From Thermoflexales bacterium (GTDB taxonomy: Bacteria; Chloroflexota; Anaerolineae; Fen-1058), in assembly GCA_030834825.1 (NCBI GenBank), contig JAUQXC010000619.1, forward strand, positions 1 through 12,223: 12,223 nucleotides of DNA, in the 5' to 3' direction. This document shows positions 1 through 10,468 of this stretch, piece by piece; the stretch's first letter is position 1; every line of letters starts with the position of its first letter. A program made the translations under genes and the position numbers. A model generated the notes under the pieces. It saw only the letters and a list, made by a program, of their open reading frames with translations. It was not told the DNA's origin and searched no databases.

Positions 1-211
1 GTGCTCCGACCGCGATCTGCGCCCCCAGCGTTTCGGTGAAACGGTTGTAGCGAAAACGACCGGGACCGCGCACCCCGGCATACAGTCCATTGTTATAAAC
101 TACCTGCACCGTCATGTCCGGCACAAAGCCGGCGCCAAACCACTTCCCGAACTTCAGCAGCAAGCGCAGTGAAAGCGGGTAACGGTTCTCGGTCGAAGAT
201 GACTTGCTCAT
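1..211 (-). CDS. Hypothetical protein, N-terminal 70 codons only; the gene continues past the left window edge. Last gene of the minus-strand cluster.
   Basis: ATG at 211..209 (minus). AGGAG sits 7 nt upstream, directly after the TGA stop of the 452-aa gene. The frame is open to position 1 (I translated it by hand: MSKSSSTENRYPLSLRLLLKFGKWFGAGFVPDMTVQVVYNNGLYAGVRGPGRF...). Third-position GC is about 70%. It is absent from the ORF track only because it is truncated by the window. Confidence 0.4.
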   Translation of the reverse strand, partial: MSKSSSTENRYPLSLRLLLKFGKWFGAGFVPDMTVQVVYNNGLYAGVRGPGRFRYNRFTETLGAQIAVGA

Positions 212-222
212 GCCTGGCTCCT

Positions 223-1581
223 TCAGTGGCTCACAAAGCGATAACCGTCTGGCTCGCGCTGAATCGCTTCTGCGACCTTGCCCAGCTTGGCACGAATCTG
301 CAGCACGTATTGAGCGAGTCGCTCAACGGGGTTGCCCTGGGCACGGTCGTGCGTCCGGCCGAGCTCAGCGGGACGCATGGCTTCAAAGAGCTCGTTGATG
401 CGGCAGAGGTCAGGACGGTGATGGTACAGGTGGCGCAGGATTTCGTACTCGGGCCAGTTTAAGCTGCTGATCAGCTGACCGTTGACGCGCACCTGGCGCG
501 CGGTTCCTACAAACTCGATCGTGACGGCTTCCCGCGACGGCCCGAATTGCTGGCGGAGGTACACCTCAAAAACCGGCGCGAAGATCTGTGGTGTGTTCAA
601 CGCGGGTGACAGGATCAAGCCCCGCCGCTTGAGCCGCGCTAAACCATCGGTCGTGGGCGCGGCTTGCGTGACGAGGCGGCGCAGTTCGGCGCGTTCCTCG
701 TCTTCCAGGCTGTGCAAGATCTTGCTGCACTCATCTTCAATGTCGGCATTGGTCAGCAATTGCGCCGGCGTCATGTTTTCCAGTGAGTCGGGGTTGCGTC
801 GCACGGCGAAATAGATCGAGCGGATCAGGCCGGCGTGACCGCCGCTCAACTCATAGATGCGCCGTTTTTCGCTGTACGCCAGTAAGGGCGCCGTTTCCTG
901 GCGAGACGCCAGGCGCTGCAACATGAAAAGTGCATCGGCTTCCAGGTAAGGTGTGATGGCGATGGTATGACCGGTGGCGGAGATCAATTCGAATAGTTCT
1001 TCAAATTCAGGGGTATTCAAGCGCAGGAACGCCGGCTCGCGCCGCGTCAGCGTGAGGTAGACGACCTGGCGTTTGTGGTTATCACGCAGCTCGCGCAGAT
1101 CGGCGAACAAGACCGGCGGCGCTTTGCCAAACAGATCATCACAGTCGTCCAGTTCCACCACGATCAGCTCGGCTCCGGCACGTGCCACGTGATCGATCGC
1201 GCGATCGAAGTTGCGCTTGGCTAATGCTTCCGGGCTGGCCTGTGCGGCCTGCCAGAGCTCAGTGAGGACCGGTAGCAGCGGTTGATAGACGCCCGCCAGT
1301 TCCTCGGCCATGCGGGTCAGTTGATCGAGCGCCTGCAGGTAGAGGGCCTGCGGCGGATGATGCGCCAGCGGTTTGCAGTTCACATACAGCACAAAGATGT
1401 GCGGCGCGCGATTTTCAAAATAGGTCAGACGGACGTCGGCGCGGGGCAGATGGCGCGCGATGTTGGATTTGCCGGAACTGCCCACACCGACCAGTGCGCA
1501 CGACTCGCCCATGCGCAACAGATCGATCACAGGCTCGAGAATTTCACGGCGAAAGGTGACCGGCGGCAGCAGCTCTGGCAT
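223..1581 (-). CDS. STAND/AAA_16-like P-loop NTPase fused to a C-terminal OmpR/PhoB-type (trans_reg_C) winged-helix DNA-binding domain; putative ATP-dependent transcriptional regulator.
   Basis: 452-aa ORF with an ATG start and AAGGA 6 nt upstream. The N-terminus reads FRREILEPVIDLL..GESCALVGVGSSGKSN, an AAA_16-style signature with Walker A GVGSSGKS. Walker B-like LIVVELDDCDD. Conserved YELSGGHAGL motif. The C-terminal ~100 aa (NWPEYEILRHLYHHRPDLCRINELFEAM...VERLAQYVLQIRAKL...EPDGYRFV) matches the OmpR/PhoB wHTH pattern (L..E..lL..L.......R..L...vW...........l...I..LR.KL......I.tv.G.GYr). Confidence 0.75.
   Translation of the reverse strand: MPELLPPVTFRREILEPVIDLLRMGESCALVGVGSSGKSNIARHLPRADVRLTYFENRAPHIFVLYVNCKPLAHHPPQALYLQALDQLTRMAEELAGVYQPLLPVLTELWQAAQASPEALAKRNFDRAIDHVARAGAELIVVELDDCDDLFGKAPPVLFADLRELRDNHKRQVVYLTLTRREPAFLRLNTPEFEELFELISATGHTIAITPYLEADALFMLQRLASRQETAPLLAYSEKRRIYELSGGHAGLIRSIYFAVRRNPDSLENMTPAQLLTNADIEDECSKILHSLEDEERAELRRLVTQAAPTTDGLARLKRRGLILSPALNTPQIFAPVFEVYLRQQFGPSREAVTIEFVGTARQVRVNGQLISSLNWPEYEILRHLYHHRPDLCRINELFEAMRPAELGRTHDRAQGNPVERLAQYVLQIRAKLGKVAEAIQREPDGYRFVSH
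226..549 (-). other. Approximate extent of the C-terminal OmpR/PhoB-family winged-helix (trans_reg_C-like) domain of the 452-aa protein.
   Basis: The motif pattern was recognised by eye (see the CDS entry). The boundaries are approximate. Confidence 0.5.
1465..1488 (-). other. Intact Walker A / P-loop (GVGSSGKS) of the 452-aa NTPase.
   Basis: The reverse complement of 1465..1488 is GGT GTG GGC AGT TCC GGC AAA TCC, which translates to G V G S S G K S. Confidence 0.8.
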
Positions 1582-1620
1582 GGCACATCCTTTCCGGGCA
1601 AGTGACTGACTGGCCTACCA

Positions 1621-2718
1621 CTAAACGGCGGCGTCGAGATCGCGCAGTCGGGACGATCGAACCGGTGGATCGGGCGGCGCGATCGGGCCTTGCGTCTTGA
1701 CGAAGGCTTCAAAGATGATCGAGAAGATACCGGGCGGATGGCCGACGATCAGCCCTTGCTTGCGCAGCCGTTCCAGCTCGCTCGATCGGATCGCGGCGCG
1801 CCGATCGGCCGTCAAGGTGAACAGGGCAAAGCGCTCGCCCAGATCGAGATCGTCCCAGATCGCCGCACAGAGCTCGTGTAGATGTTGCTCTTGTTGCACG
1901 CCGCGCTCGAAACTGCTCCAAGGCAGATGCCGCTGCTCTTCCCACAGGCGCAACACAGCCACCAACAGCTTGGCATGGCCTCCGGTCAGGCGATACAGCT
2001 GATCTTCGTCATCGGCCGTGGGGGGCAGCCGCCAGTCGAAGGTTTTGCGCCGGATGGCTGCGTGCGCGTCGGCGCGGGCATAGGGCCGGAGCGGATAAGT
2101 ATCTTCGTCAAACAGTTCGGTGAATTTATCGACGGCTTCGTCGTGTGCGCTGCGCTGTTGGGCCAGTGTGGTGAGTTCGCGGCAGGTGCCTACCAGATAG
2201 CACAAGCGCAGCTTGTGTTCATCACGCAGCTGGCGCAGCCGGCGCAGCCGGGCGACCGGCATTTGTAAAAATGGTTGATCGAATTCGTCGAAGATCAGCA
2301 GCAGGCGGTGCTGCGGCGTACGGCATAACAGCGTCACGGCTTTGGAGAGCAGTTCGTCAGGTTCCGCCTGATCGAGCTGTTGTTCCAGATAGTGCAGCGC
2401 ATTTTGATCGGCTCTGGCGCTGTGGTGATGTTCCGCGGCGCGGTTAATCTGCCGGATGATCTCACGAGAGAACTCGGTGGGTTGGGTGAGCCAGCCGGTC
2501 TCCAAATAGACGGGCAATGTATAGGTGGCCAGGGCGTTCAGATAGTTGTCGATGACGCGGCGTTCGGCGCTAAACCGCAACGCGTTGGACAGACCGGCGC
2601 CGCGCAGCCCGACCACGGCACACGATCGACCGGCGTGGATGGCGCGAAAGATAGGCGACATTAAGTCACGGCGAAAGTTGAGCGTGAGTTCGGGAGGAGC
2701 AGCGGGTATATCTAACAA
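1621..2718 (-). CDS. Paralogous STAND/AAA_16-like NTPase with a degenerate Walker A (no lysine) and no DNA-binding domain; probably a catalytically inactive partner subunit.
   Basis: 365-aa ORF that aligns along the whole ATPase region with the downstream 452-aa protein: LNFRRDLMSPIFRAIHAGRSCAVVGLRGAGLSN vs VTFRREILEPVIDLLRMGESCALVGVGSSGKSN; LLLIFDEFDQ vs LIVVELDDCDD; YRLTGGHAKLL vs YELSGGHAGLI. It starts with TTG at 2718, three nt after the TAA of the upstream gene. There is no in-frame ATG before the conserved FRR motif. Confidence 0.7.
   Translation of the reverse strand: MLDIPAAPPELTLNFRRDLMSPIFRAIHAGRSCAVVGLRGAGLSNALRFSAERRVIDNYLNALATYTLPVYLETGWLTQPTEFSREIIRQINRAAEHHHSARADQNALHYLEQQLDQAEPDELLSKAVTLLCRTPQHRLLLIFDEFDQPFLQMPVARLRRLRQLRDEHKLRLCYLVGTCRELTTLAQQRSAHDEAVDKFTELFDEDTYPLRPYARADAHAAIRRKTFDWRLPPTADDEDQLYRLTGGHAKLLVAVLRLWEEQRHLPWSSFERGVQQEQHLHELCAAIWDDLDLGERFALFTLTADRRAAIRSSELERLRKQGLIVGHPPGIFSIIFEAFVKTQGPIAPPDPPVRSSRLRDLDAAV
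2587..2610 (-). other. Degenerate Walker A: G L R G A G L S, with the P-loop lysine replaced by Leu (CTG).
   Basis: The reverse complement of 2587..2610 is GGG CTG CGC GGC GCC GGT CTG TCC. Compare GxxxxGK[ST] in the paralog at 1465..1488. Confidence 0.75.
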
Positions 2719-2721
2719 CGT

Positions 2722-3867
2722 TTACTCGGTTGCTGGCGAATCTAACGGCGTCAATAGAGCGACGACGGCGCCGGCGATCTGCACGTCGTCTTCATGGTAA
2801 GTTTTGGTGTCTGTGCCATCCTGAAAAGCCCAGACTCGTTCGCCGATGATCAACGGCGAAGCCGGCGGCTGGTTGTGTACCAACAAGGCGCGTTGTTCCG
2901 TGGGGATCAAAATCACGATCGGCCAATCGGGCGGCAGCGTTCGATCGTGCGAGCGGACCAGCGCAAAGTCGGGCTGGCCCGGTGGCTGTGGCTCACGCGC
3001 AGCCGCAAACTGAAAGGCGTAGTAGGGTTGGCCGGTCTGCATGCGGAACTTGCCCCGGGTGGGTTCGGGCGCCAGAATTTGATAATGCTGCCCGCCGATC
3101 GAGAGCTGATCGACCTCGATGTAGTCCAGTTTGTCAGGCTGCAGCTGGACGTGCTGCGATAAGATGGCCACGTTGTGTTCGGCGCTCTGTACCGGCATCA
3201 ACTGCATGCCGGCCAGATCGATATGGGTCCAGATAAGCTCAGCGGGAATCTCAATCTGATCGAGCCAATCCCGGTCGCTGCTTTCCTCCAGGGGAGGTGA
3301 CAAATGGGCCGGTGTAGGGCGATCGGCTAATGGCACGCGACGCACGGCCTGCTGCGCCGCCTGTTTGAGTCCCTGGTACTCTGCCTCCAGCCGCGGATTA
3401 CTTTGGCGATGTTGAACAACCATCAGCTTATCAAGGCGTGGCAAGGCGGCTTGATAATGGCGCACAGCCACTTCAAAGCGTTCTTCTTCCCAGGCGATGC
3501 GGGCCAGAACTAACTCGGCCAACGCATGGTGATATTCATCATGGGCTAGCCAGGTTAAGGCGAGCTGACCCGTGAGCAAAGCCCGACCCCCTTCGGCCGG
3601 CACCATGGAGAGATGGCGTAGATAGGCCAGGTAGAGCAGGGCAATGCCGGCCGAAGTGCGCCGCACTGCTTCCGTGGCGATGTCGCGCTTATTGACACTC
3701 CGGGCACGCGCTGCCAGACGTGTCGTGGCCCGAGCCAGTTCCAACGCCTTGTCAATCTCCTTGCGGCGCAGCCAATGCTGGGCTTCCTTGCAGCGTACAA
3801 GGATCTCCGGATCAACCCGGCGGGTGTCGATGGAGCGGAGCAGGCGCGGAATATTCAGAGGCACCAT
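2722..3867 (-). CDS. Hypothetical protein with a TPR-like helical N-terminal half and an unassigned C-terminal domain.
   Basis: 381-aa ORF with an ATG at 3867, 5 nt after the TAA of the upstream SPFH gene. Its N-terminus is helical and repeat-like (ALELARATTRLAARA...ALLYLAYLRHL...ALAELVLARIAWEEERFEVAVRHYQAAL). The C-terminal ~180 aa match no family I recognise. Confidence 0.65.
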   Translation of the reverse strand: MVPLNIPRLLRSIDTRRVDPEILVRCKEAQHWLRRKEIDKALELARATTRLAARARSVNKRDIATEAVRRTSAGIALLYLAYLRHLSMVPAEGGRALLTGQLALTWLAHDEYHHALAELVLARIAWEEERFEVAVRHYQAALPRLDKLMVVQHRQSNPRLEAEYQGLKQAAQQAVRRVPLADRPTPAHLSPPLEESSDRDWLDQIEIPAELIWTHIDLAGMQLMPVQSAEHNVAILSQHVQLQPDKLDYIEVDQLSIGGQHYQILAPEPTRGKFRMQTGQPYYAFQFAAAREPQPPGQPDFALVRSHDRTLPPDWPIVILIPTEQRALLVHNQPPASPLIIGERVWAFQDGTDTKTYHEDDVQIAGAVVALLTPLDSPATE

Positions 3868-3872
3868 TGAGC

Positions 3873-5702
3873 TTAACGTCCCGGCGGTCCTGGCGGCAAG
3901 TTGAGGCGGCGCAGCCGTTCCAGAACTTGATCTGCTTCCTTGCGTGTCGTGGTGGATAATAACGGCAGAATGGTCTCTCGCTGCAGGGTGCGTTCGATGG
4001 CGCGCGCCAAGGCTTCCACCACATCGCGTGAAAGTTGATTATTCGGATCCATCGTGCGCGCCGCCTGCACGATGCTTTTCACCAGCTCGGCCTGTGCTTC
4101 AGCGCGCACTGTTTGAAGTTGCAACAGTCCTTCGGCCTCGCCGCCTGAACGGATAATGGTCGATTCTTTTTCCCAGCCGGCCTGCCACATGTTGGTGCGC
4201 TGTGTGGTCACCTCCCGTGGCAGTTGCAGGTTGCCAAAGGTGCTGTCCACCAGTTCAAGCCCGCGTGCGGCCAGAGCCGCTTTGGCCGCGTTGTCGAGTT
4301 TGGCTGCAATTTCGCGCCGTGGACTGCGCCCGGGATCGTCGGGCGCAAAGATCTGATCGAGCATGCGGCGGTTCAACTCGTCACGCACTTCACCCACGGC
4401 GGAACTGAAGGCCGCCTGAAACCACTTGATCGGTTTAGGTGGCCGATGCACCTCATAGCAGGCCATGCGCAGCGCCTCCGGCGAAACCGGCGGTTCGGTG
4501 CCCGCGCCATGTGGCGTGCGCGTCAGATAGTGATGCAGCACGCTCAAAAAACGCGGATGCTGCGCCGAGGTGGGCGGCTCGCCCGGCATGCGCTCCATGA
4601 AGCGGAACATGGCGCCCTCCGCCGCGCGCACAGGAATACCATCTTTCGTCAGGCTCATTTCCACGCCGTCAAAGCTCTGCGTGCGCAGATCATAGATGGC
4701 GCGAATGCGCTCGAACGGCATCAGGGTATGATCTTCCGGTCCCAGGACGCGTGAATAACGTGCGCCGCGCTCCGTCAGCACGGCCGTGTGATCTTTGATG
4801 GACAGCACACCCGGCCCGCCGATCTTCAATAAGACCTCGTTGTCGTCATTCTGGGGGTTCTCGTAATCGCCGTGCTGCACTGAAATCCAGCCGCCGCCCA
4901 CCGGCAGGCCCAGGGTGGTGTTCACAACAAAGGCGACTCCATGCCAGAGGGACTTCAGGCTGTACATCTGTGCGACAAAGGTGCCTGCGCGGATGAAGGC
5001 AATGGCAATGCCAATCAGGGCCGGGATGATAAACCACCAATCGACGAAGAACTTGGGCGGGGCAGGCACGATGCCTTCAATGCCGGTCGCGACATCGACG
5101 GTGAACGTGAACTCCGGACCAAACCAGTGGATACCATCGGGTGCGAACAAACGCCACTTCGTCACGTAGGAGCCGGGGGCCGCGGGCGCGATCATCTCGA
5201 CGACGGGTGCCAGGATACCTTCTGGCGCGATGTCCGGCAAAGTATTGTCTGGGAACTGATAGGCCGGGACCGAGAGCGTATCCGTCAGCGCCTCCACCTG
5301 TCCATAGATCAAGCGGAACTGCACATCGGCGCCCCAGGCACAGGAGCTGGTGTTGCGAATGAACCACTGCGCGTAAATCTGAGCACCGGGCGGAGCGGCA
5401 ATATTCAAAGCTGGCGAAGCTTGTGGACCGCCTGCCGGTTGTCCCGTAGCCAATGTGGCTTCAGCCGAAGTCGCATTATAAATGCACTCCTTGCCCGGTT
5501 CGCGCTCGACGTAGCGTTCGGCCGGCGGTCTGATCGATTGCACGATCAAACCACCCGCCAGCCCCACAACGAGCAACGCCGCAAACAACGCCCCAAAGCG
5601 CAGCCAGGCGCGCACTTGCTCGTCGTGGCTTAGCGAGTAAGCCAGTGTCGCGATCAGGTCTTTAAGTCGTGGATGAGAATCCATGAGCGTCAGGTGGTTC
5701 AA
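3873..5702 (-). CDS. SPFH/band-7 (stomatin/prohibitin/flotillin/HflKC superfamily) membrane protein. An extracytoplasmic NBR1-like (N_BRCA1_IG / FW-type) Ig domain is inserted between two TM helices, and the C-terminal region is coiled-coil.
   Basis: 609-aa ORF. TM1 is FGALFAALLVVGLAGGLIVQ. The loop domain carries the NBR1-FW-like signature (W)FIRNTSSCAWGADVQFRLIYG ... APAAPGSYVTKWRLFAPDGIHWFGPEFTFTVDV. TM2 is WWFIIPALIGIAIAFIRAGTFVAQMY. The SPFH core reads LLKIGGPGVLSI...YDLRTQSFDGVEMSLTKDGIPVRAAEGAMFRF; compare stomatin GPGLFF...VDLRTQ...TKDNV.V.VDAVVYYRV. The track start is a TTG at 5702; an alternative ATG at 5684 is possible. Confidence 0.75.
   Translation of the reverse strand: MNHLTLMDSHPRLKDLIATLAYSLSHDEQVRAWLRFGALFAALLVVGLAGGLIVQSIRPPAERYVEREPGKECIYNATSAEATLATGQPAGGPQASPALNIAAPPGAQIYAQWFIRNTSSCAWGADVQFRLIYGQVEALTDTLSVPAYQFPDNTLPDIAPEGILAPVVEMIAPAAPGSYVTKWRLFAPDGIHWFGPEFTFTVDVATGIEGIVPAPPKFFVDWWFIIPALIGIAIAFIRAGTFVAQMYSLKSLWHGVAFVVNTTLGLPVGGGWISVQHGDYENPQNDDNEVLLKIGGPGVLSIKDHTAVLTERGARYSRVLGPEDHTLMPFERIRAIYDLRTQSFDGVEMSLTKDGIPVRAAEGAMFRFMERMPGEPPTSAQHPRFLSVLHHYLTRTPHGAGTEPPVSPEALRMACYEVHRPPKPIKWFQAAFSSAVGEVRDELNRRMLDQIFAPDDPGRSPRREIAAKLDNAAKAALAARGLELVDSTFGNLQLPREVTTQRTNMWQAGWEKESTIIRSGGEAEGLLQLQTVRAEAQAELVKSIVQAARTMDPNNQLSRDVVEALARAIERTLQRETILPLLSTTTRKEADQVLERLRRLNLPPGPPGR
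5088..5420 (-). other. Approximate extent of the extracytoplasmic NBR1-like Ig domain of the 609-aa SPFH protein.
   Basis: Roughly aa 95-205, between the two predicted TM helices. The assignment rests on remembered motif similarity only. Confidence 0.45.
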
Positions 5703-6999
5703 GCTGCGGCGGCAGTTCGCCTGGCCGCGCTATCTGCAAGACGAAGCGCAGCTGATCTTCTTCCAGCAGCGACCGCGTTTTAGGATCGTCAGTGATTTTC
5801 TTGACGACTTTCCAGAAATGCTGAGTGATTTGATCTTGATCGCCGCTGAGCGGCAGGTCTTGTTCCAAAGCTTGTGTCAGGCGCATGATACTTTCCAGCC
5901 GGGCCTGGGCCCGGGCTTTCTCGCGCTGCCGATCGGCTTCGGCCTGCCCCTCGGCATTCAGTTTGATCATGCGGCTTTCCCACTCGGCCTTCCAGGCTTT
6001 GATGCGTTGCGCCGTGATGGGGTCCAGTTCCGGCTTTTCCTGGTTGAAGGTCTTGTCGGGATCAAACTCTTGCGGTAGAAACATGGCGATGCTGAGACTG
6101 AGCACCTTGACGCCTTGCTGCATCAAGACCGGTTTCAAGCGTGCGATGATCTGCTCACGAATGTCTTTGCGTGGATCCCGGGTCGGTTCGTTGGGCGAGA
6201 GCAGGTCGTCAAAGCGGTATTCGGAGATGATGGCGCGCAGCATGCCTTTAGCATACAACAACGGCAAGTCGTTCCATTTTGTCAGCGGGCCGCCGCCGTC
6301 GACCACTTGCAAGTTCGTCAAGGCCCGGGCCACGGGCCGCATCGACCAGCTGATCGGCGCCGGGAAGGGGGCCTTAGGATCGTGCGCATGCAGATTTTTG
6401 TTGAAGTTCGCTTGATCGATCTGGAAGCGCAGCGTCAAACGTGCCTTGATGGGAATGCCGTCGCGGGTCATGAACTCAAATTCCTGCGACCGGAATTGAA
6501 TCCGCAGATCGACGATGTGCCGCAGTTGTTCCGTTTCACGCATGAAGACCAGGCCGGGGCCTTTGATGCGGCTGAGATCGATTTCGGTGTGCAGGGTCAC
6601 CACGCTGGTGCTATCCACGTCGATGACACCGTGCCCCCAGACCTCTTCGCGCGGCTCGCCGCCCGGTCCCGGTACTACGACACCGTCACGCACCACGGCC
6701 ATCGCCACCCGACCGCCCGTGGCAAACCGGCGCAGGATACCGCGTGCGGCCGCTTTCTCCTGTCTGTCACGGGGGTTAACGGGCAAGACGTGTGACCCTG
6801 CCAGCAGCAGCGTCAGGTAGAAAAACACCATCACGATGACGAAGGCGACAAACAGGTTGAACAGACCCGTGATGAAAATATCGTTGGTCAGGGCGCGTAA
6901 GGGACCAATGAAGAAGCCGTACAGAATCAAGACGGCTACCAGGATCATAATCGAAAGGCGGCCGGTAGAGGGCCGTTTGCGCTTCCTCATAATGTTCAC
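5662..6999 (-). CDS. SPFH/band-7 family membrane protein, a paralog of the downstream 609-aa protein. Two N-terminal TM helices, SPFH core, charged coiled-coil tail.
   Basis: 445-aa ORF. TMs: IMILVAVLILYGFFIGPL and LFNLFVAFVIVMVFFYLTLLLAG. SPFH core: IKGPGLVFMRETEQLRHIVDLRIQFRSQEFEFMTRDGIPIKARLTLRFQI. The C-terminal stretch is rich in E/K/R/Q (AEGQAEADRQREKARAQARLES). The track start is a GTG at 6999. An ATG at 6989 (MRKRKRP...) fits the predicted promoter and TSS better. Confidence 0.75.
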   Translation of the reverse strand: MNIMRKRKRPSTGRLSIMILVAVLILYGFFIGPLRALTNDIFITGLFNLFVAFVIVMVFFYLTLLLAGSHVLPVNPRDRQEKAAARGILRRFATGGRVAMAVVRDGVVVPGPGGEPREEVWGHGVIDVDSTSVVTLHTEIDLSRIKGPGLVFMRETEQLRHIVDLRIQFRSQEFEFMTRDGIPIKARLTLRFQIDQANFNKNLHAHDPKAPFPAPISWSMRPVARALTNLQVVDGGGPLTKWNDLPLLYAKGMLRAIISEYRFDDLLSPNEPTRDPRKDIREQIIARLKPVLMQQGVKVLSLSIAMFLPQEFDPDKTFNQEKPELDPITAQRIKAWKAEWESRMIKLNAEGQAEADRQREKARAQARLESIMRLTQALEQDLPLSGDQDQITQHFWKVVKKITDDPKTRSLLEEDQLRFVLQIARPGELPPQLEPPDAHGFSSTT

Positions 7000-7000
7000 T

Positions 7001-7030
7001 ACTATAGCATAAAGACCGCACGTTGACCAA
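7001..7030 (-). promoter_or_regulatory. Candidate sigma70-like promoter for the minus-strand cluster: -35 TTGGTC (7030..7025), 18-nt spacer, -10 TATAGT (7006..7001).
   Basis: The hexamers were read from the reverse complement of the only AT-richer intergenic stretch. The predicted TSS is around 6992-6995, so the transcript is leaderless or nearly so onto the ATG at 6989. Confidence 0.3.
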
Positions 7031-8230: not shown

Positions 8231-10468
8231 ATGCTCAAATCGTATGCCGTCCGTTACGGGTTAAGCGCGCTGCTGTTGTCCCTGGCAGCGGCGTTCCTCT
8301 ACGCTGTTATTAAACTGATGGAAGTCGGCCGTGCGATCGCGCCGCGTGAGTTTTTCACCACGGTGGGGCCGGCATACTGGCTGGTGTTGACGCTGCTGCT
8401 GACTTTTGCCGCGTTGGCCTATGGTGCCGGCAAGCAGCGCGATCGGGCTGTGGCACTGGCGCGCGAGCGTGAAACATTAACCGGTATTTTGAGCACGTTG
8501 ATGCACGCGCCTGATCCCGATCTGGAGCAAAGTCTGCCGCGCGTGCTGCAACAGATCGCGGCCGTGGTGAGTGCGGAAGAGGCGGCGCTGTTGACGCTCG
8601 ATCACGAGCAGTGGGTGCTGCGTGCGGCAACTTCACAGACCTTGCCGGCCTTGTTGCAATTGCCCAAGGCACTCCCTTGGCCACCGGTGGATTCACGACA
8701 GATCATTGCCTGTGAGGCGCGACCGGAAGAATCTGTGGCTTTAACGTCGGCGGACCTACCCCGCGTCACCGCGTGTGTCGCCGTGTATTCTGAAGCGCAG
8801 CCACTGGGCTGGCTGGTGTTAGTGAAGCCACGAACTCAGGTGGCGCTGGGCGATGCGGCTGATTTGCTGATCACCCTGGCCGATCAGATTGGCGCTGCCT
8901 TAGCGCGTTCGCGGCAATATGCCCTGGTGCGCCGCCGCGCGCGCGACTTGGAAGCCATTACTCAGACAAATCGGCTGCTGTTGGCCGGTATGGGGCTGGA
9001 TGAGCTGCTGACGACCATCGTGAATTCAGCTCAGGTGCGCTTTGGGTTGCCCTATGTGACCGTCATGTGGATTGACGAGGTCGCAGGTGATTTCTATATA
9101 CGCGCACAGGCTGGCCCGTTAGTGGCGCTGGCTGTACCGAACTTTCGGCAGAAACTCACAACAGGATTGGCCGCGCAAGTGTTGCGCACGGGGCAGCCTT
9201 ATCTGGCGCGAGACACGCGACAAGAGCCGGACTACATTCCCGCGGTCAGCGCTGCCATTCGATCGCTGTTGTTGACGCCGCTGAAAACAGCCGAGCGGGT
9301 GATCGGTGTGATGACGTTTGAAAGTCTGGCCGTCGAGGCCTTCAGTGCTGAGGAAGTGTCGGCGTTGACGGCACTCACCGATCAGGCAGCCATTGCGGCC
9401 GAGAATGCCGCCCTGCTGATTGAGGCGCAGCGGGAGCGACAGCGGGCGAGTGCAATTTTGCATAGTGCGCGCGATGTGGTGGTGTTGATCGATACAGCCG
9501 ACCGCGTGCAGTTATTGAATCCGGCGGCCGAGCGGTTGTTGGGCGTCAGTGCAGCGACGGCGGTCGGCCGCCCGATCGAGCAGCTGCTGACCTTCCCGTC
9601 CGTGCTGGAGGCCTATCAGCGGCACACTCCCAACTCGGAAGAGCAGTCATTTGAAGCGCCGCTGGATAATGGGCAGACCTACCTGGTCACGATTACGATC
9701 GCGAAAGATGAAACAGGCGCGCATCTGGGGCGGGTGGTGATCATGCGTGACATCACTTATCTGAAGCGGCTGGATCAGTTCAAGTCGCAGATGGTACAGA
9801 TGACTTCACATGATCTGCGTACGCCGTTGGGAGTCGCCATCGGATATCTGGATCTCTTGAAAGACGACCTGCAACCGGCCACGCCGTTTCGTGAACGGGC
9901 CTTGCAGGGCCTGGAGGCTGCGCTGAACCGCATGCAGACGCTGGTCACCGAGTTGCTCGATTTGGAACGGGTGGAAGCGGGGACCGATCGTTTGCGAGTG
10001 CGGGTCGATGTGGGTAGTCTGGCGGCCGAGGCCGTGGCGGAGTTTGAAGAGATGGCCCAGACCCAGCAACAACAGGTGGACTTTACGCTGCCGCACGATC
10101 TGCCGTCGATTCGGGGCGATCCCGCCCGCTTGAAACAGGCCATCGGCAATCTGATCAACAACGCCGTGAAGTACACGCCGGACGGCGGGTCCATCTGGGT
10201 GCGCGTGCGGCCCGACGATCAGCGTGTTTTAATCGAAGTGCAGGACACAGGTTACGGTATTCCAGCGGCCGCGCAGGCGAAACTGTTTCAGCGTTTTTAT
10301 CGGGTCAGGATTCCCGGCGCAGAGAACATTGCAGGGACCGGACTTGGCCTGAGTCTGGTGAAGGCCATCGTGGAGCAGCATGGTGGACGTGTGTCTGCCG
10401 AGAGCGAGGAAGGCAAAGGCAGCACGTTTCGCATCTGGTTGCCAATGGCGGATGGTGAAAATGGCTAA
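8231..10468 (+). CDS. Membrane-anchored sensor histidine kinase: two TM helices, two GAF-like domains, a PAS domain, then HisKA and HATPase_c.
   Basis: 745-aa ORF. N-terminal TMs (LSALLLSLAAAFLYAVI; WLVLTLLLTFAALAYGA). The GAF-like stretch ends in VIGVMTFES. PAS: ILHSARDVVVLIDTADRVQLLNPAAERLLGVS...RDITYLK. H-box MTSHDLRTPLG (His at 9809..9811). N-box GNLINNAVKYT. G1/G2 DTGYGIP...GTGLGLSLVKAIVEQHGG. No receiver domain, and no response regulator gene in the window. Confidence 0.9.
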   Translation: MLKSYAVRYGLSALLLSLAAAFLYAVIKLMEVGRAIAPREFFTTVGPAYWLVLTLLLTFAALAYGAGKQRDRAVALARERETLTGILSTLMHAPDPDLEQSLPRVLQQIAAVVSAEEAALLTLDHEQWVLRAATSQTLPALLQLPKALPWPPVDSRQIIACEARPEESVALTSADLPRVTACVAVYSEAQPLGWLVLVKPRTQVALGDAADLLITLADQIGAALARSRQYALVRRRARDLEAITQTNRLLLAGMGLDELLTTIVNSAQVRFGLPYVTVMWIDEVAGDFYIRAQAGPLVALAVPNFRQKLTTGLAAQVLRTGQPYLARDTRQEPDYIPAVSAAIRSLLLTPLKTAERVIGVMTFESLAVEAFSAEEVSALTALTDQAAIAAENAALLIEAQRERQRASAILHSARDVVVLIDTADRVQLLNPAAERLLGVSAATAVGRPIEQLLTFPSVLEAYQRHTPNSEEQSFEAPLDNGQTYLVTITIAKDETGAHLGRVVIMRDITYLKRLDQFKSQMVQMTSHDLRTPLGVAIGYLDLLKDDLQPATPFRERALQGLEAALNRMQTLVTELLDLERVEAGTDRLRVRVDVGSLAAEAVAEFEEMAQTQQQQVDFTLPHDLPSIRGDPARLKQAIGNLINNAVKYTPDGGSIWVRVRPDDQRVLIEVQDTGYGIPAAAQAKLFQRFYRVRIPGAENIAGTGLGLSLVKAIVEQHGGRVSAESEEGKGSTFRIWLPMADGENG

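Follow-up and report, generated by a model that had tools for sequence, protein, structure and literature searches.

Pairs of active and inactive STAND proteins have already been proposed in bacteria. In section 15 of Kaur, Iyer, Burroughs & Aravind (2021, eLife, PMC8195603), a two-gene operon of bacterial conflict systems encodes an active STAND and an eroded, inactive STAND that are predicted to form a hetero-multimer, and in the iSTAND and iSTAND2 modules the inactive STANDs were put forward as sensing components (PMC7159879). Here, we describe a locus on a 12,223-nucleotide stretch of DNA from a Thermoflexales bacterium (contig JAUQXC010000619.1; the whole stretch analysed is referred to as the window), in which an open reading frame (ORF) of 365 codons (1621..2718, identical to TFLX_05477 of a Thermoflexales bacterium) encodes a STAND-like paralog without the Walker A lysine, next to a paralog of 452 amino acids (aa) that retains it (223..1581). 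These are called the dead and the live paralog below, and all coordinates of the two genes and their operon refer to the minus strand. The likeness lies in adjacent bacterial paralogs with intact and defective NTP-binding motifs, respectively, and in an inactive copy acting as the sensing or adaptor part (PMC8195603). The described active/inactive and iSTAND systems, however, are mobile conflict systems with eroded motifs and with effector fusions (GT4, HEPN) or MoxR-vWA partners, whereas in the window only the lysine is replaced in an otherwise invariant pocket, the companions are SPFH genes, the live partner is a DNA-binding regulator and the output is presumed to be transcription. The ternary arrangement of iSTAND and iSTAND2 (an inactive STAND with MoxR and vWA, and N-terminal effector or adaptor domains) was not encountered in the window or in syntenic loci, and neither MoxR, vWA nor effector domains were found in the window (Pfam, PADLOC) or in those loci. 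What is new here is an undescribed family with a selected, lysine-less copy; literature searches on SPFH together with STAND and winged-helix proteins, on STAND paralogs with a degenerate Walker A motif, and on AAA_16 combined with Trans_reg_C returned no description of this system.

The degenerate Walker A motif of the dead paralog, G37-L-R-G-A-G-L43-S44 (2587..2610), was read directly from the codons GGG CTG CGC GGC GCC GGT CTG TCC AAC (G37 L R G A G L43 S N). The codon of Leu43 is CTG at 2592..2590, exactly where the initial annotation had placed it (2590..2592, minus strand), and is at least two substitutions removed from AAR. The corresponding motif of the live paralog is GVGSSGK38S (G32..S39; 1465..1488), with the Lys38 codon at 1470..1468. 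That annotation had also regarded the two adjacent ORFs as paralogs and the leucine as occupying the place of the canonical lysine, and both views were borne out. BLASTP aligned the two proteins at 28% identity over 361 residues (E=4e-24) with L43 opposite K38, while profile-profile alignment of the two families with hhalign gave a probability of 100 and E=5e-60 over 334 columns, with GLSN lying over GKSN. Additionally, when the dead-family profile was compared with the PDB, L43 aligned with the lysine of GSGKS in ABC-transporter P-loops, and in the AlphaFold model (pLDDT 92.5, pTM 0.91) strand 33-37 leads into a helix that opens with L43, the canonical place of the lysine. The sequence GK[ST] was not found anywhere in the 365 aa of the protein, and this, together with the modelled position of L43, rules out an intact P-loop elsewhere in it.

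The three motifs that had been noted as common to both proteins (FRR, Walker B and T/SGGHAxL) are indeed all present in both paralogs. The FRR motif reads NFRRD in the dead and TFRRE in the live protein, and the Walker B strand LLLIFDEFD (residues 139-147, 2278..2304; strand 138-144 in the model), of which D144 is invariant in the alignments, corresponds to LIVVELDDCD. The strand-4/sensor-I region of the dead paralog, located by alignment and as strand 172-178 of the model, reads YLVGTCRE (consensus GTRRE; residues 174-181, 2176..2199) and presumably represents the STAND-type hhhT-x-R (hhhT(T/S)R) arginine motif. Among its residues, G177 is more than 90% conserved and an arginine is found at 179 or 180 in all orthologs, while in the live counterpart, YLTLTRRE, T177 and R180 are each more than 90% conserved. 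Finally, the lid-domain motif TGGHAKLL (residues 245-252, 1963..1986) is the counterpart of the STAND GxP or 'GLPL' motif; it corresponds to SGGHAGLI in the live protein, and relatives carry GGHPGLL.

Lysine was found at the position of L43 in none of 27 aligned orthologs (40-82% identity). Across these orthologs G40, G42, S44, N45, D144, G246, G247, H248, A249 and K250 are invariant, L43 is more than 90% conserved and E145 of Walker B is mostly kept; altogether, 48 columns are invariant in the 27 sequences down to 40% identity. About 40 orthologous clusters, with identities down to 34%, all lack the lysine, while the remaining motifs of the pocket are invariant in them. A scan of 1.84 billion cluster representatives with a family profile recovered 1462 relatives (E up to 1e-3), among which the dead clade formed a separate high-scoring group (at least 248 bits) whose members, where the region is present, carry L, M, A, G or V. 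Copies in the fetched loci described below add A and M at this position, and over the entire clade including those loci the lysine is replaced by L, M, A, T, G or V. Conversely, lysine is kept in 126 of the 142 other top representatives of the superfamily and in 50 of 51 members of the live family. In a neighbour-joining tree, all proteins lacking both the lysine and a DNA-binding winged helix-turn-helix (wHTH) domain constitute one clade, and its sister group consists of paralogs that possess lysine and wHTH and share the same DEFD Walker B motif, indicating that the lysine and the wHTH were each lost a single time. The ratio of non-synonymous to synonymous substitution rates (dN/dS) of the dead gene against the locus of a close relative (L068) was 0.158, within the range of the neighbouring genes (0.138-0.169), which points to purifying selection matching that on its neighbours. 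As judged from the alignments, the tree and the substitution rates, the lysine replacement is a clade-defining and selected state of a functional gene. That the protein is ATPase-dead is suggested by the missing lysine; with all other residues of the pocket fully conserved, it may still bind a nucleotide. Independent losses of the Walker A lysine were also seen elsewhere in the superfamily, none of them in the window: in P0150 (P-loop GLRGAGQSN, wHTH retained), P0264 (P-loop GFYGVGLST, 781 aa), P0244 (Thr) and P0185 (Arg).

The dead protein is composed of a nucleotide-binding domain, a helical domain, a winged helix and a short C-terminal tail, and is without the DNA-binding wHTH; alignment of the 27 orthologs likewise revealed no OmpR-type DNA-binding domain in the dead family. 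The live paralog combines a STAND-like NTPase with a C-terminal OmpR/PhoB-type wHTH (approximately residues 350-452, 226..534) that was recognised by profile matching. The match of the window's live copy alone to Trans_reg_C is weak (15.4 bits, E 0.02), but 24 of 51 live-family members match this domain (best E 8.7e-19), and positions 343-448 of the live-family profile match dozens of OmpR-family DNA-binding domains in the PDB (E from 6e-7). Family-wide Pfam matches were counted at E up to 0.01, irrespective of the Pfam cut-offs. On this basis AAA_16 was matched by 49 of 51 live and 13 of 27 dead members, nSTAND1 by eight and NACHT by five of the 51 live members. For the window proteins themselves the matches fall below the Pfam cut-offs, namely AAA_16 for the live protein (30.6 bits versus a cut-off of 32.6) and AAA_22 (22 bits) and AAA_16 (16.9 bits) for the dead protein; a third paralog, encoded in locus L001, matches nSTAND1 above the cut-off (39.9 versus 27.1). 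A search of NCBIfam returned nothing. These profile matches, in particular AAA_16 in almost the whole live family and the above-threshold nSTAND1 match, are in keeping with the STAND-like class to which the two proteins had initially been assigned.

With respect to the features typical of STAND proteins, Walker A (GxxxxGK[ST]) is found in the live (GVGSSGKS) and not in the dead paralog (GLRGAGLS), whereas Walker B (hhhhD[DE]) with its second acidic residue and the sensor-I arginine of hhhT(T/S)R occur in both, and a helical domain that bears the GxP ('GLPL') motif, with a winged-helix domain behind it, is also present. A C-terminal repeat sensor in cis (TPR, WD40 or LRR) was not found in either protein, a TPR-like protein being encoded separately upstream. 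Using Foldseek, the best matches of the dead model were the ORC/Cdc6 structures 1w5t, 1fnn and 2v1u (E 1e-7 to 5e-6, TM approximately 0.5), although neither paralog matched the ORC/Cdc6 families of Pfam and a PDB search with the dead-family profile found ABC-transporter P-loop fragments only. The dead fold matches STAND, ORC and PAB2304 structures alike, with NB-ARC proteins among its best structural matches, and the unit of nucleotide-binding, helical and winged-helix domains is a module common to STAND and initiator-clade AAA+ proteins. Here, the hhhTxR and GGH(A/P)xL motifs favour the STAND over the initiator AAA+ side. In contrast to ORC/Cdc6, the proteins of the dead and live families match AAA_16, AAA_22 and nSTAND1 rather than ORC families and carry a STAND-like hhhTxR motif, while DNA binding in the live protein is assigned to an additional OmpR-type domain and the genomic context consists of SPFH genes and not of replication genes. 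For PAB2304 and SSO1545 (PDB 2qen and 2fna), identity is only 12-16%, and they possess intact Walker A motifs, and no protein of the window matched the Pfam family Arch_ATPase.

The two paralogs belong to a string of minus-strand genes: SPFH1 (6999..5662, 445 aa), SPFH2 (5702..3873, 609 aa), X381 (3867..2722, 381 aa), dead (2718..1621), live (1581..223) and SPFH3, of which the N-terminal 70 aa are present (2..211) before the gene runs off the left edge of the window. X381 and dead are separated by 3 nt, dead and live by 39 nt containing a GGAAAGGA ribosome-binding site, and live and SPFH3 by 11 nt. To compare this arrangement, dead loci were retrieved independently of the live gene (L001, L002, L005, L068, L069, the P0030 contig, L070 and L071), and 60 further loci were fetched with the live profile and mapped. 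Two architectures containing the dead gene were distinguished. In the first, SPFH1, SPFH2 and X are followed by dead and live in either order, an optional third paralog and SPFH3, while in the second a transmembrane protein precedes dead, and further downstream a protein with APH-kinase and TCAD9 matches precedes live and SPFH3. In all eight independent dead loci with sufficient contig (the window counted), the dead gene shares its strand and its operon with SPFH3 and with a wHTH paralog that bears the lysine. The live/dead asymmetry, the conservation of which the initial annotation had named as a check, thus holds in orthologous operons. The heteromeric assembly that it had envisaged, in which one protomer hydrolyses NTP, fared less uniformly: the STAND-like class and the conserved asymmetry stand, whereas a set of otherwise equivalent protomers proved too simple, the dead paralog also lacking the DNA-binding domain and being optional.

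The combination of a dead paralog with a live ATPase is a recurring route to asymmetric switches, as in ORC, clamp loaders and paired NLRs. The reading that we favour, in which our confidence is evenly divided between acceptance and doubt, is that ORF 1621..2718 encodes a conserved, selected and non-catalytic STAND-like NTPase paralog that would co-assemble with the live regulator as a modulating protomer. In such a scheme, the live protein would be an ATP-dependent, oligomerising transcription switch of the MalT/AfsR kind under the control of an SPFH membrane scaffold. The dead paralog would join it through common oligomerisation surfaces, contributing neither NTP hydrolysis nor DNA binding, and would tune or gate assembly of the regulator, probably relaying the state of the co-inherited upstream module much as the sensor does in NLR pairs of sensor and helper. 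Speaking for this reading are the loss of the lysine throughout the clade with the remaining pocket invariant, selection comparable to that on the neighbouring genes, the monophyly of the dead clade, the confident model and its fold, the company of a Lys-bearing wHTH paralog and SPFH3 in all eight dead loci, the tight gene spacing, the OmpR-type domain of the live family and the precedent of active/inactive STAND operons. An oligomer of live and dead protomers is plausible, while promotion and capping of assembly by the dead protomer cannot be told apart from sequence.

Three known types of regulator bear on this scheme. In plant sensor/helper NLR pairs (RGA5/RGA4, RRS1/RPS4), linked STAND paralogs are found in which the P-loop of the sensor is dispensable or degenerate and the partner executes. 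The window shares with them linked paralogous STAND proteins with divided labour, and NB-ARC proteins, as mentioned, resemble the dead model; the NLR pairs, however, are eukaryotic, with LRR sensors, integrated decoys and cell death as output, whereas the window proteins have no repeat sensor in cis and a presumed transcriptional output. MalT combines a large sensor domain with a LuxR-type HTH at its C-terminus, and AfsR an N-terminal OmpR-type domain with BTAD and TPR domains. Neither a dead partner paralog nor a companion of the SPFH type is known for MalT or for AfsR/SARP-type regulators, and the literature searches given above found neither. Lastly, PspF is an AAA+-type transcription regulator that is encoded beside, and controlled by, the membrane-associated scaffold PspA. 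This pair serves as a working analogy, with no homology implied, as PspF belongs to the clade of sigma-54 enhancer-binding proteins and its scaffold is ESCRT-III-like and not SPFH.

Several observations weigh against co-assembly with the live regulator. Classical STAND P-loop mutants usually fail to oligomerise, which makes co-assembly of a Lys-less protomer by the canonical route uncertain, and what points to SPFH regulation is gene adjacency alone. Most live loci function without a dead copy: it is absent from eight live loci whose contigs extend for at least 2.5 kb in either direction, and also from the syntenic operon L008 (radA, histidine kinase and rlmD, then SPFH1, SPFH2, X and live). 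The near-universal neighbour of live is SPFH3 and not the dead paralog; the dead gene is accessory in this Chloroflexota operon, and the widespread core consists of the live ATPase-wHTH gene and an SPFH gene. Furthermore, the order of dead and live varies between loci, and the sole Lys-bearing partner in L070 and L071 belongs to the 'third' clade. Between the window and L068, SPFH1, SPFH2, X381, dead, rlmD and the kinase are 81-85% identical (dead 82%), whereas live is only 36-37% and SPFH3 approximately 42% identical (window 223-1581 and 2-211; L068 9317-11586). Conversely, L068 and L001 share 65% identity in live and 73-76% in SPFH3 and only 35% in dead. These identities indicate that live and SPFH3 move as a cassette while dead stays with the upstream module, and that the dead protein either accepts widely divergent partners or has no direct contact with them; replacement of live and SPFH3 beside an 82% identical dead protein argues against a tightly co-evolved dead-live interface. 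Taken together, exchange of the cassette, a partner that may come from either of two clades and a dead gene that many genomes can do without lower our confidence in a specific, co-evolved interface. L008 (10001-12331) lacks dead and SPFH3 as well as the third paralog, and its next gene is the same indigoidine-synthase-A-like gene as after the full operon of L005; the accessory genes appear to have been lost here by a natural deletion.

The same co-inheritance is what a different reading, possible though in our view doubtful, would predict, namely that the dead protein is a stand-alone, nucleotide-independent adaptor on an upstream protein (X381 or a multi-pass membrane protein), which affects live indirectly or not at all. 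The dead gene is indeed inherited with SPFH1, SPFH2 and X381 and not with the live-SPFH3 cassette, and it is coupled to its upstream gene in both architectures, across a gap of 3 nt in the window and by a 4-nt overlap with the gene of a multi-pass membrane protein of approximately 208 aa in L002. Those upstream proteins are, however, unrelated between the two architectures, the second being without X381, while a Lys-bearing wHTH paralog and SPFH3 are all that the dead loci have in common as partners; moreover, in L005 the live gene lies between X and dead. A contact site for such an adaptor might be provided by the tail of the dead clade, S-R-L-R-D-P-x5-W-stop, which is conserved and clade-specific and with which the family ends about 20 residues past the winged helix. 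TPR domains are classical binders of C-terminal peptides and X381 has a TPR-like domain, making the tail (RLRDP...W) a natural candidate ligand. The tail is conserved through the whole dead clade, yet it remains the same where the upstream protein is a different one, and the window's own copy is without the terminal tryptophan. In the DNA of the window (1615..1653), the tail reads S-R-L-R-D-L-D-A-A-V and is followed by TAG (1623..1621), TGG and TAG (GCC GCC GTT TAG TGG TAG), whereas the 82% identical ortholog of L068 ends in DLDADIRW-stop; the near-universal tryptophan is thus lacking because a stop at the penultimate codon, relative to the orthologs, precedes the ancestral TGG and stop. This premature TAG may be a recent nonsense change or an error of the metagenome-assembled genome. 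Finally, full conservation of the nucleotide pocket is difficult to explain for a pure scaffold.

Conservation of the pocket is, on the other hand, what would be expected if the protein were not dead, i.e. if the Lys-less P-loop bound a nucleotide or another phosphate ligand, perhaps with slow turnover, and the protein acted as a second, differently tuned switch, which we consider unlikely. All elements of the pocket except the lysine are invariant in the 27 orthologs (the P-loop glycines, S44, N45, D144, the sensor-I arginine and GGHAK, with E145 mostly kept), and the replacement is limited to hydrophobic or small residues without drift, unlike the eroded motifs of the iSTANDs. Nevertheless, in virtually every P-loop NTPase that has been studied, binding and hydrolysis both depend on the Walker A lysine, which makes contact with the beta and gamma phosphates, and the loop of the dead clade contains no conserved basic residue that could compensate for its absence; R39 was considered for this role and rejected, as it varies among orthologs. 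An artefact or decay, with the Leu codon an error of sequencing or assembly or the ORF a pseudogene, has next to no probability despite the metagenomic origin of the assembly and the suspicious stop at the penultimate codon, since orthologs from independent assemblies all lack the lysine, which rules out an error at this codon, a change from CTG to AAR takes at least two substitutions, and a dN/dS of 0.16, the invariant columns and the confident structure model speak against a pseudogene.

Among the neighbouring genes, SPFH1 (5662..6999; 445 aa as listed) encodes a membrane SPFH/Band-7 protein (Pfam Band_7, 36 bits), and SPFH2 (3873..5702), the start of which overlaps the end of SPFH1 by 41 nt, a membrane protein that joins an Ig domain of the NBR1 type to an SPFH/Band-7 domain (N_BRCA1_IG 50 bits, Band_7 29 bits). 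The fragment of SPFH3, a soluble SPFH/Band-7 protein, is 42-51% identical to the SPFH3 genes of other loci (BLASTP), the orthologs of which match Band_7. X381 (2722..3867) belongs to no Pfam family, is conserved in approximately 30 clusters (48-86% identity) and is syntenic in L001, L005, L008, L068, L070 and L071. Its AlphaFold model (overall pLDDT 66) comprises an N-terminal, TPR-like helical repeat (residues 1-178, pLDDT 80-95), for which fold searches of the N-terminal half returned weak TPR-like matches only, a disordered linker of approximately 65 residues and a low-confidence, beta-rich C-terminal domain of unassigned fold. Upstream of the operon lies a putative promoter, TGGTCA-17-TATAGT with an extended TG (7001..7029), which was identified by its match to the consensus and its conservation in three orthologous loci, the element TGGTCA-17-TG-n-TATAGT being common to the window, L068 and L005. 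As the GTG start given for this ORF (6999) lies immediately next to the -10 box, SPFH1 probably starts at the ATG at 6990 (MRKRKRP...), and its mRNA is probably leaderless or has a very short leader. On the other strand, a conserved TATAAT is probably used by the divergent rlmD-like gene. Further away, the RadA ORF, with its listed start at 10380, has 89 nt (10380-10468) in common with the end of the histidine-kinase ORF, and the real RadA start is probably a downstream Met (MAKAKT...).

The locus is chromosomally syntenic beside rlmD, the histidine kinase and radA in three lineages, and PADLOC defence models gave no significant match for any of the five operon proteins; a defence system was therefore rejected as the primary reading. 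In the live loci, live and SPFH3 are usually preceded by a protein of 730-890 aa with APH-kinase and TCAD9 matches. This protein, with the motif HGDCHSRN...D.E, was seen in L011 (6156-8804), L022 (7312-9978), L027, L033, L038 and L069 (3345-6002), and stands where the SPFH1-SPFH2-X381 module would be. Homology between it and X381 was considered and rejected (hhalign probability 0.1). The TCAD9 domains in these related loci represent a distant link to the 'ternary' conflict systems.

The case of the dead paralog is unusually clean, with one catalytic residue changed, selection acting on the whole pocket, and loss of the DNA-binding domain in this lineage as well. More tentatively still than the modulating protomer favoured above, and with the chances clearly against it, the locus might constitute an undescribed signalling device of Chloroflexota, in which SPFH scaffolds would control a STAND-type OmpR-like factor and the dead paralog would be the signal-receiving protomer, the Walker A substitution locking it in one nucleotide state and the RLRDP...W peptide docking to the input module. 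If so, the dead paralog would be a selected and precisely edited, rather than eroded, pseudo-NTPase and a bacterial transcriptional counterpart of the NLR sensor. If, on the other hand, the dead subunit is a mere optional modulator, its description would be a useful annotation without a new principle. Beyond the dead paralog, STAND-like ATPase-wHTH regulators such as the live protein make up a large superfamily that is still uncharacterised (1462 clusters at 50% identity, at the threshold of the scan given above), and in the sampled loci the members closest to the window's live gene are almost always followed by an SPFH gene. This SPFH-linked family of STAND-wHTH regulators is a more interesting lead than the dead paralog itself, and, if the SPFH link is functional, it would make the targets of signalling by bacterial SPFH scaffolds accessible to experiment.

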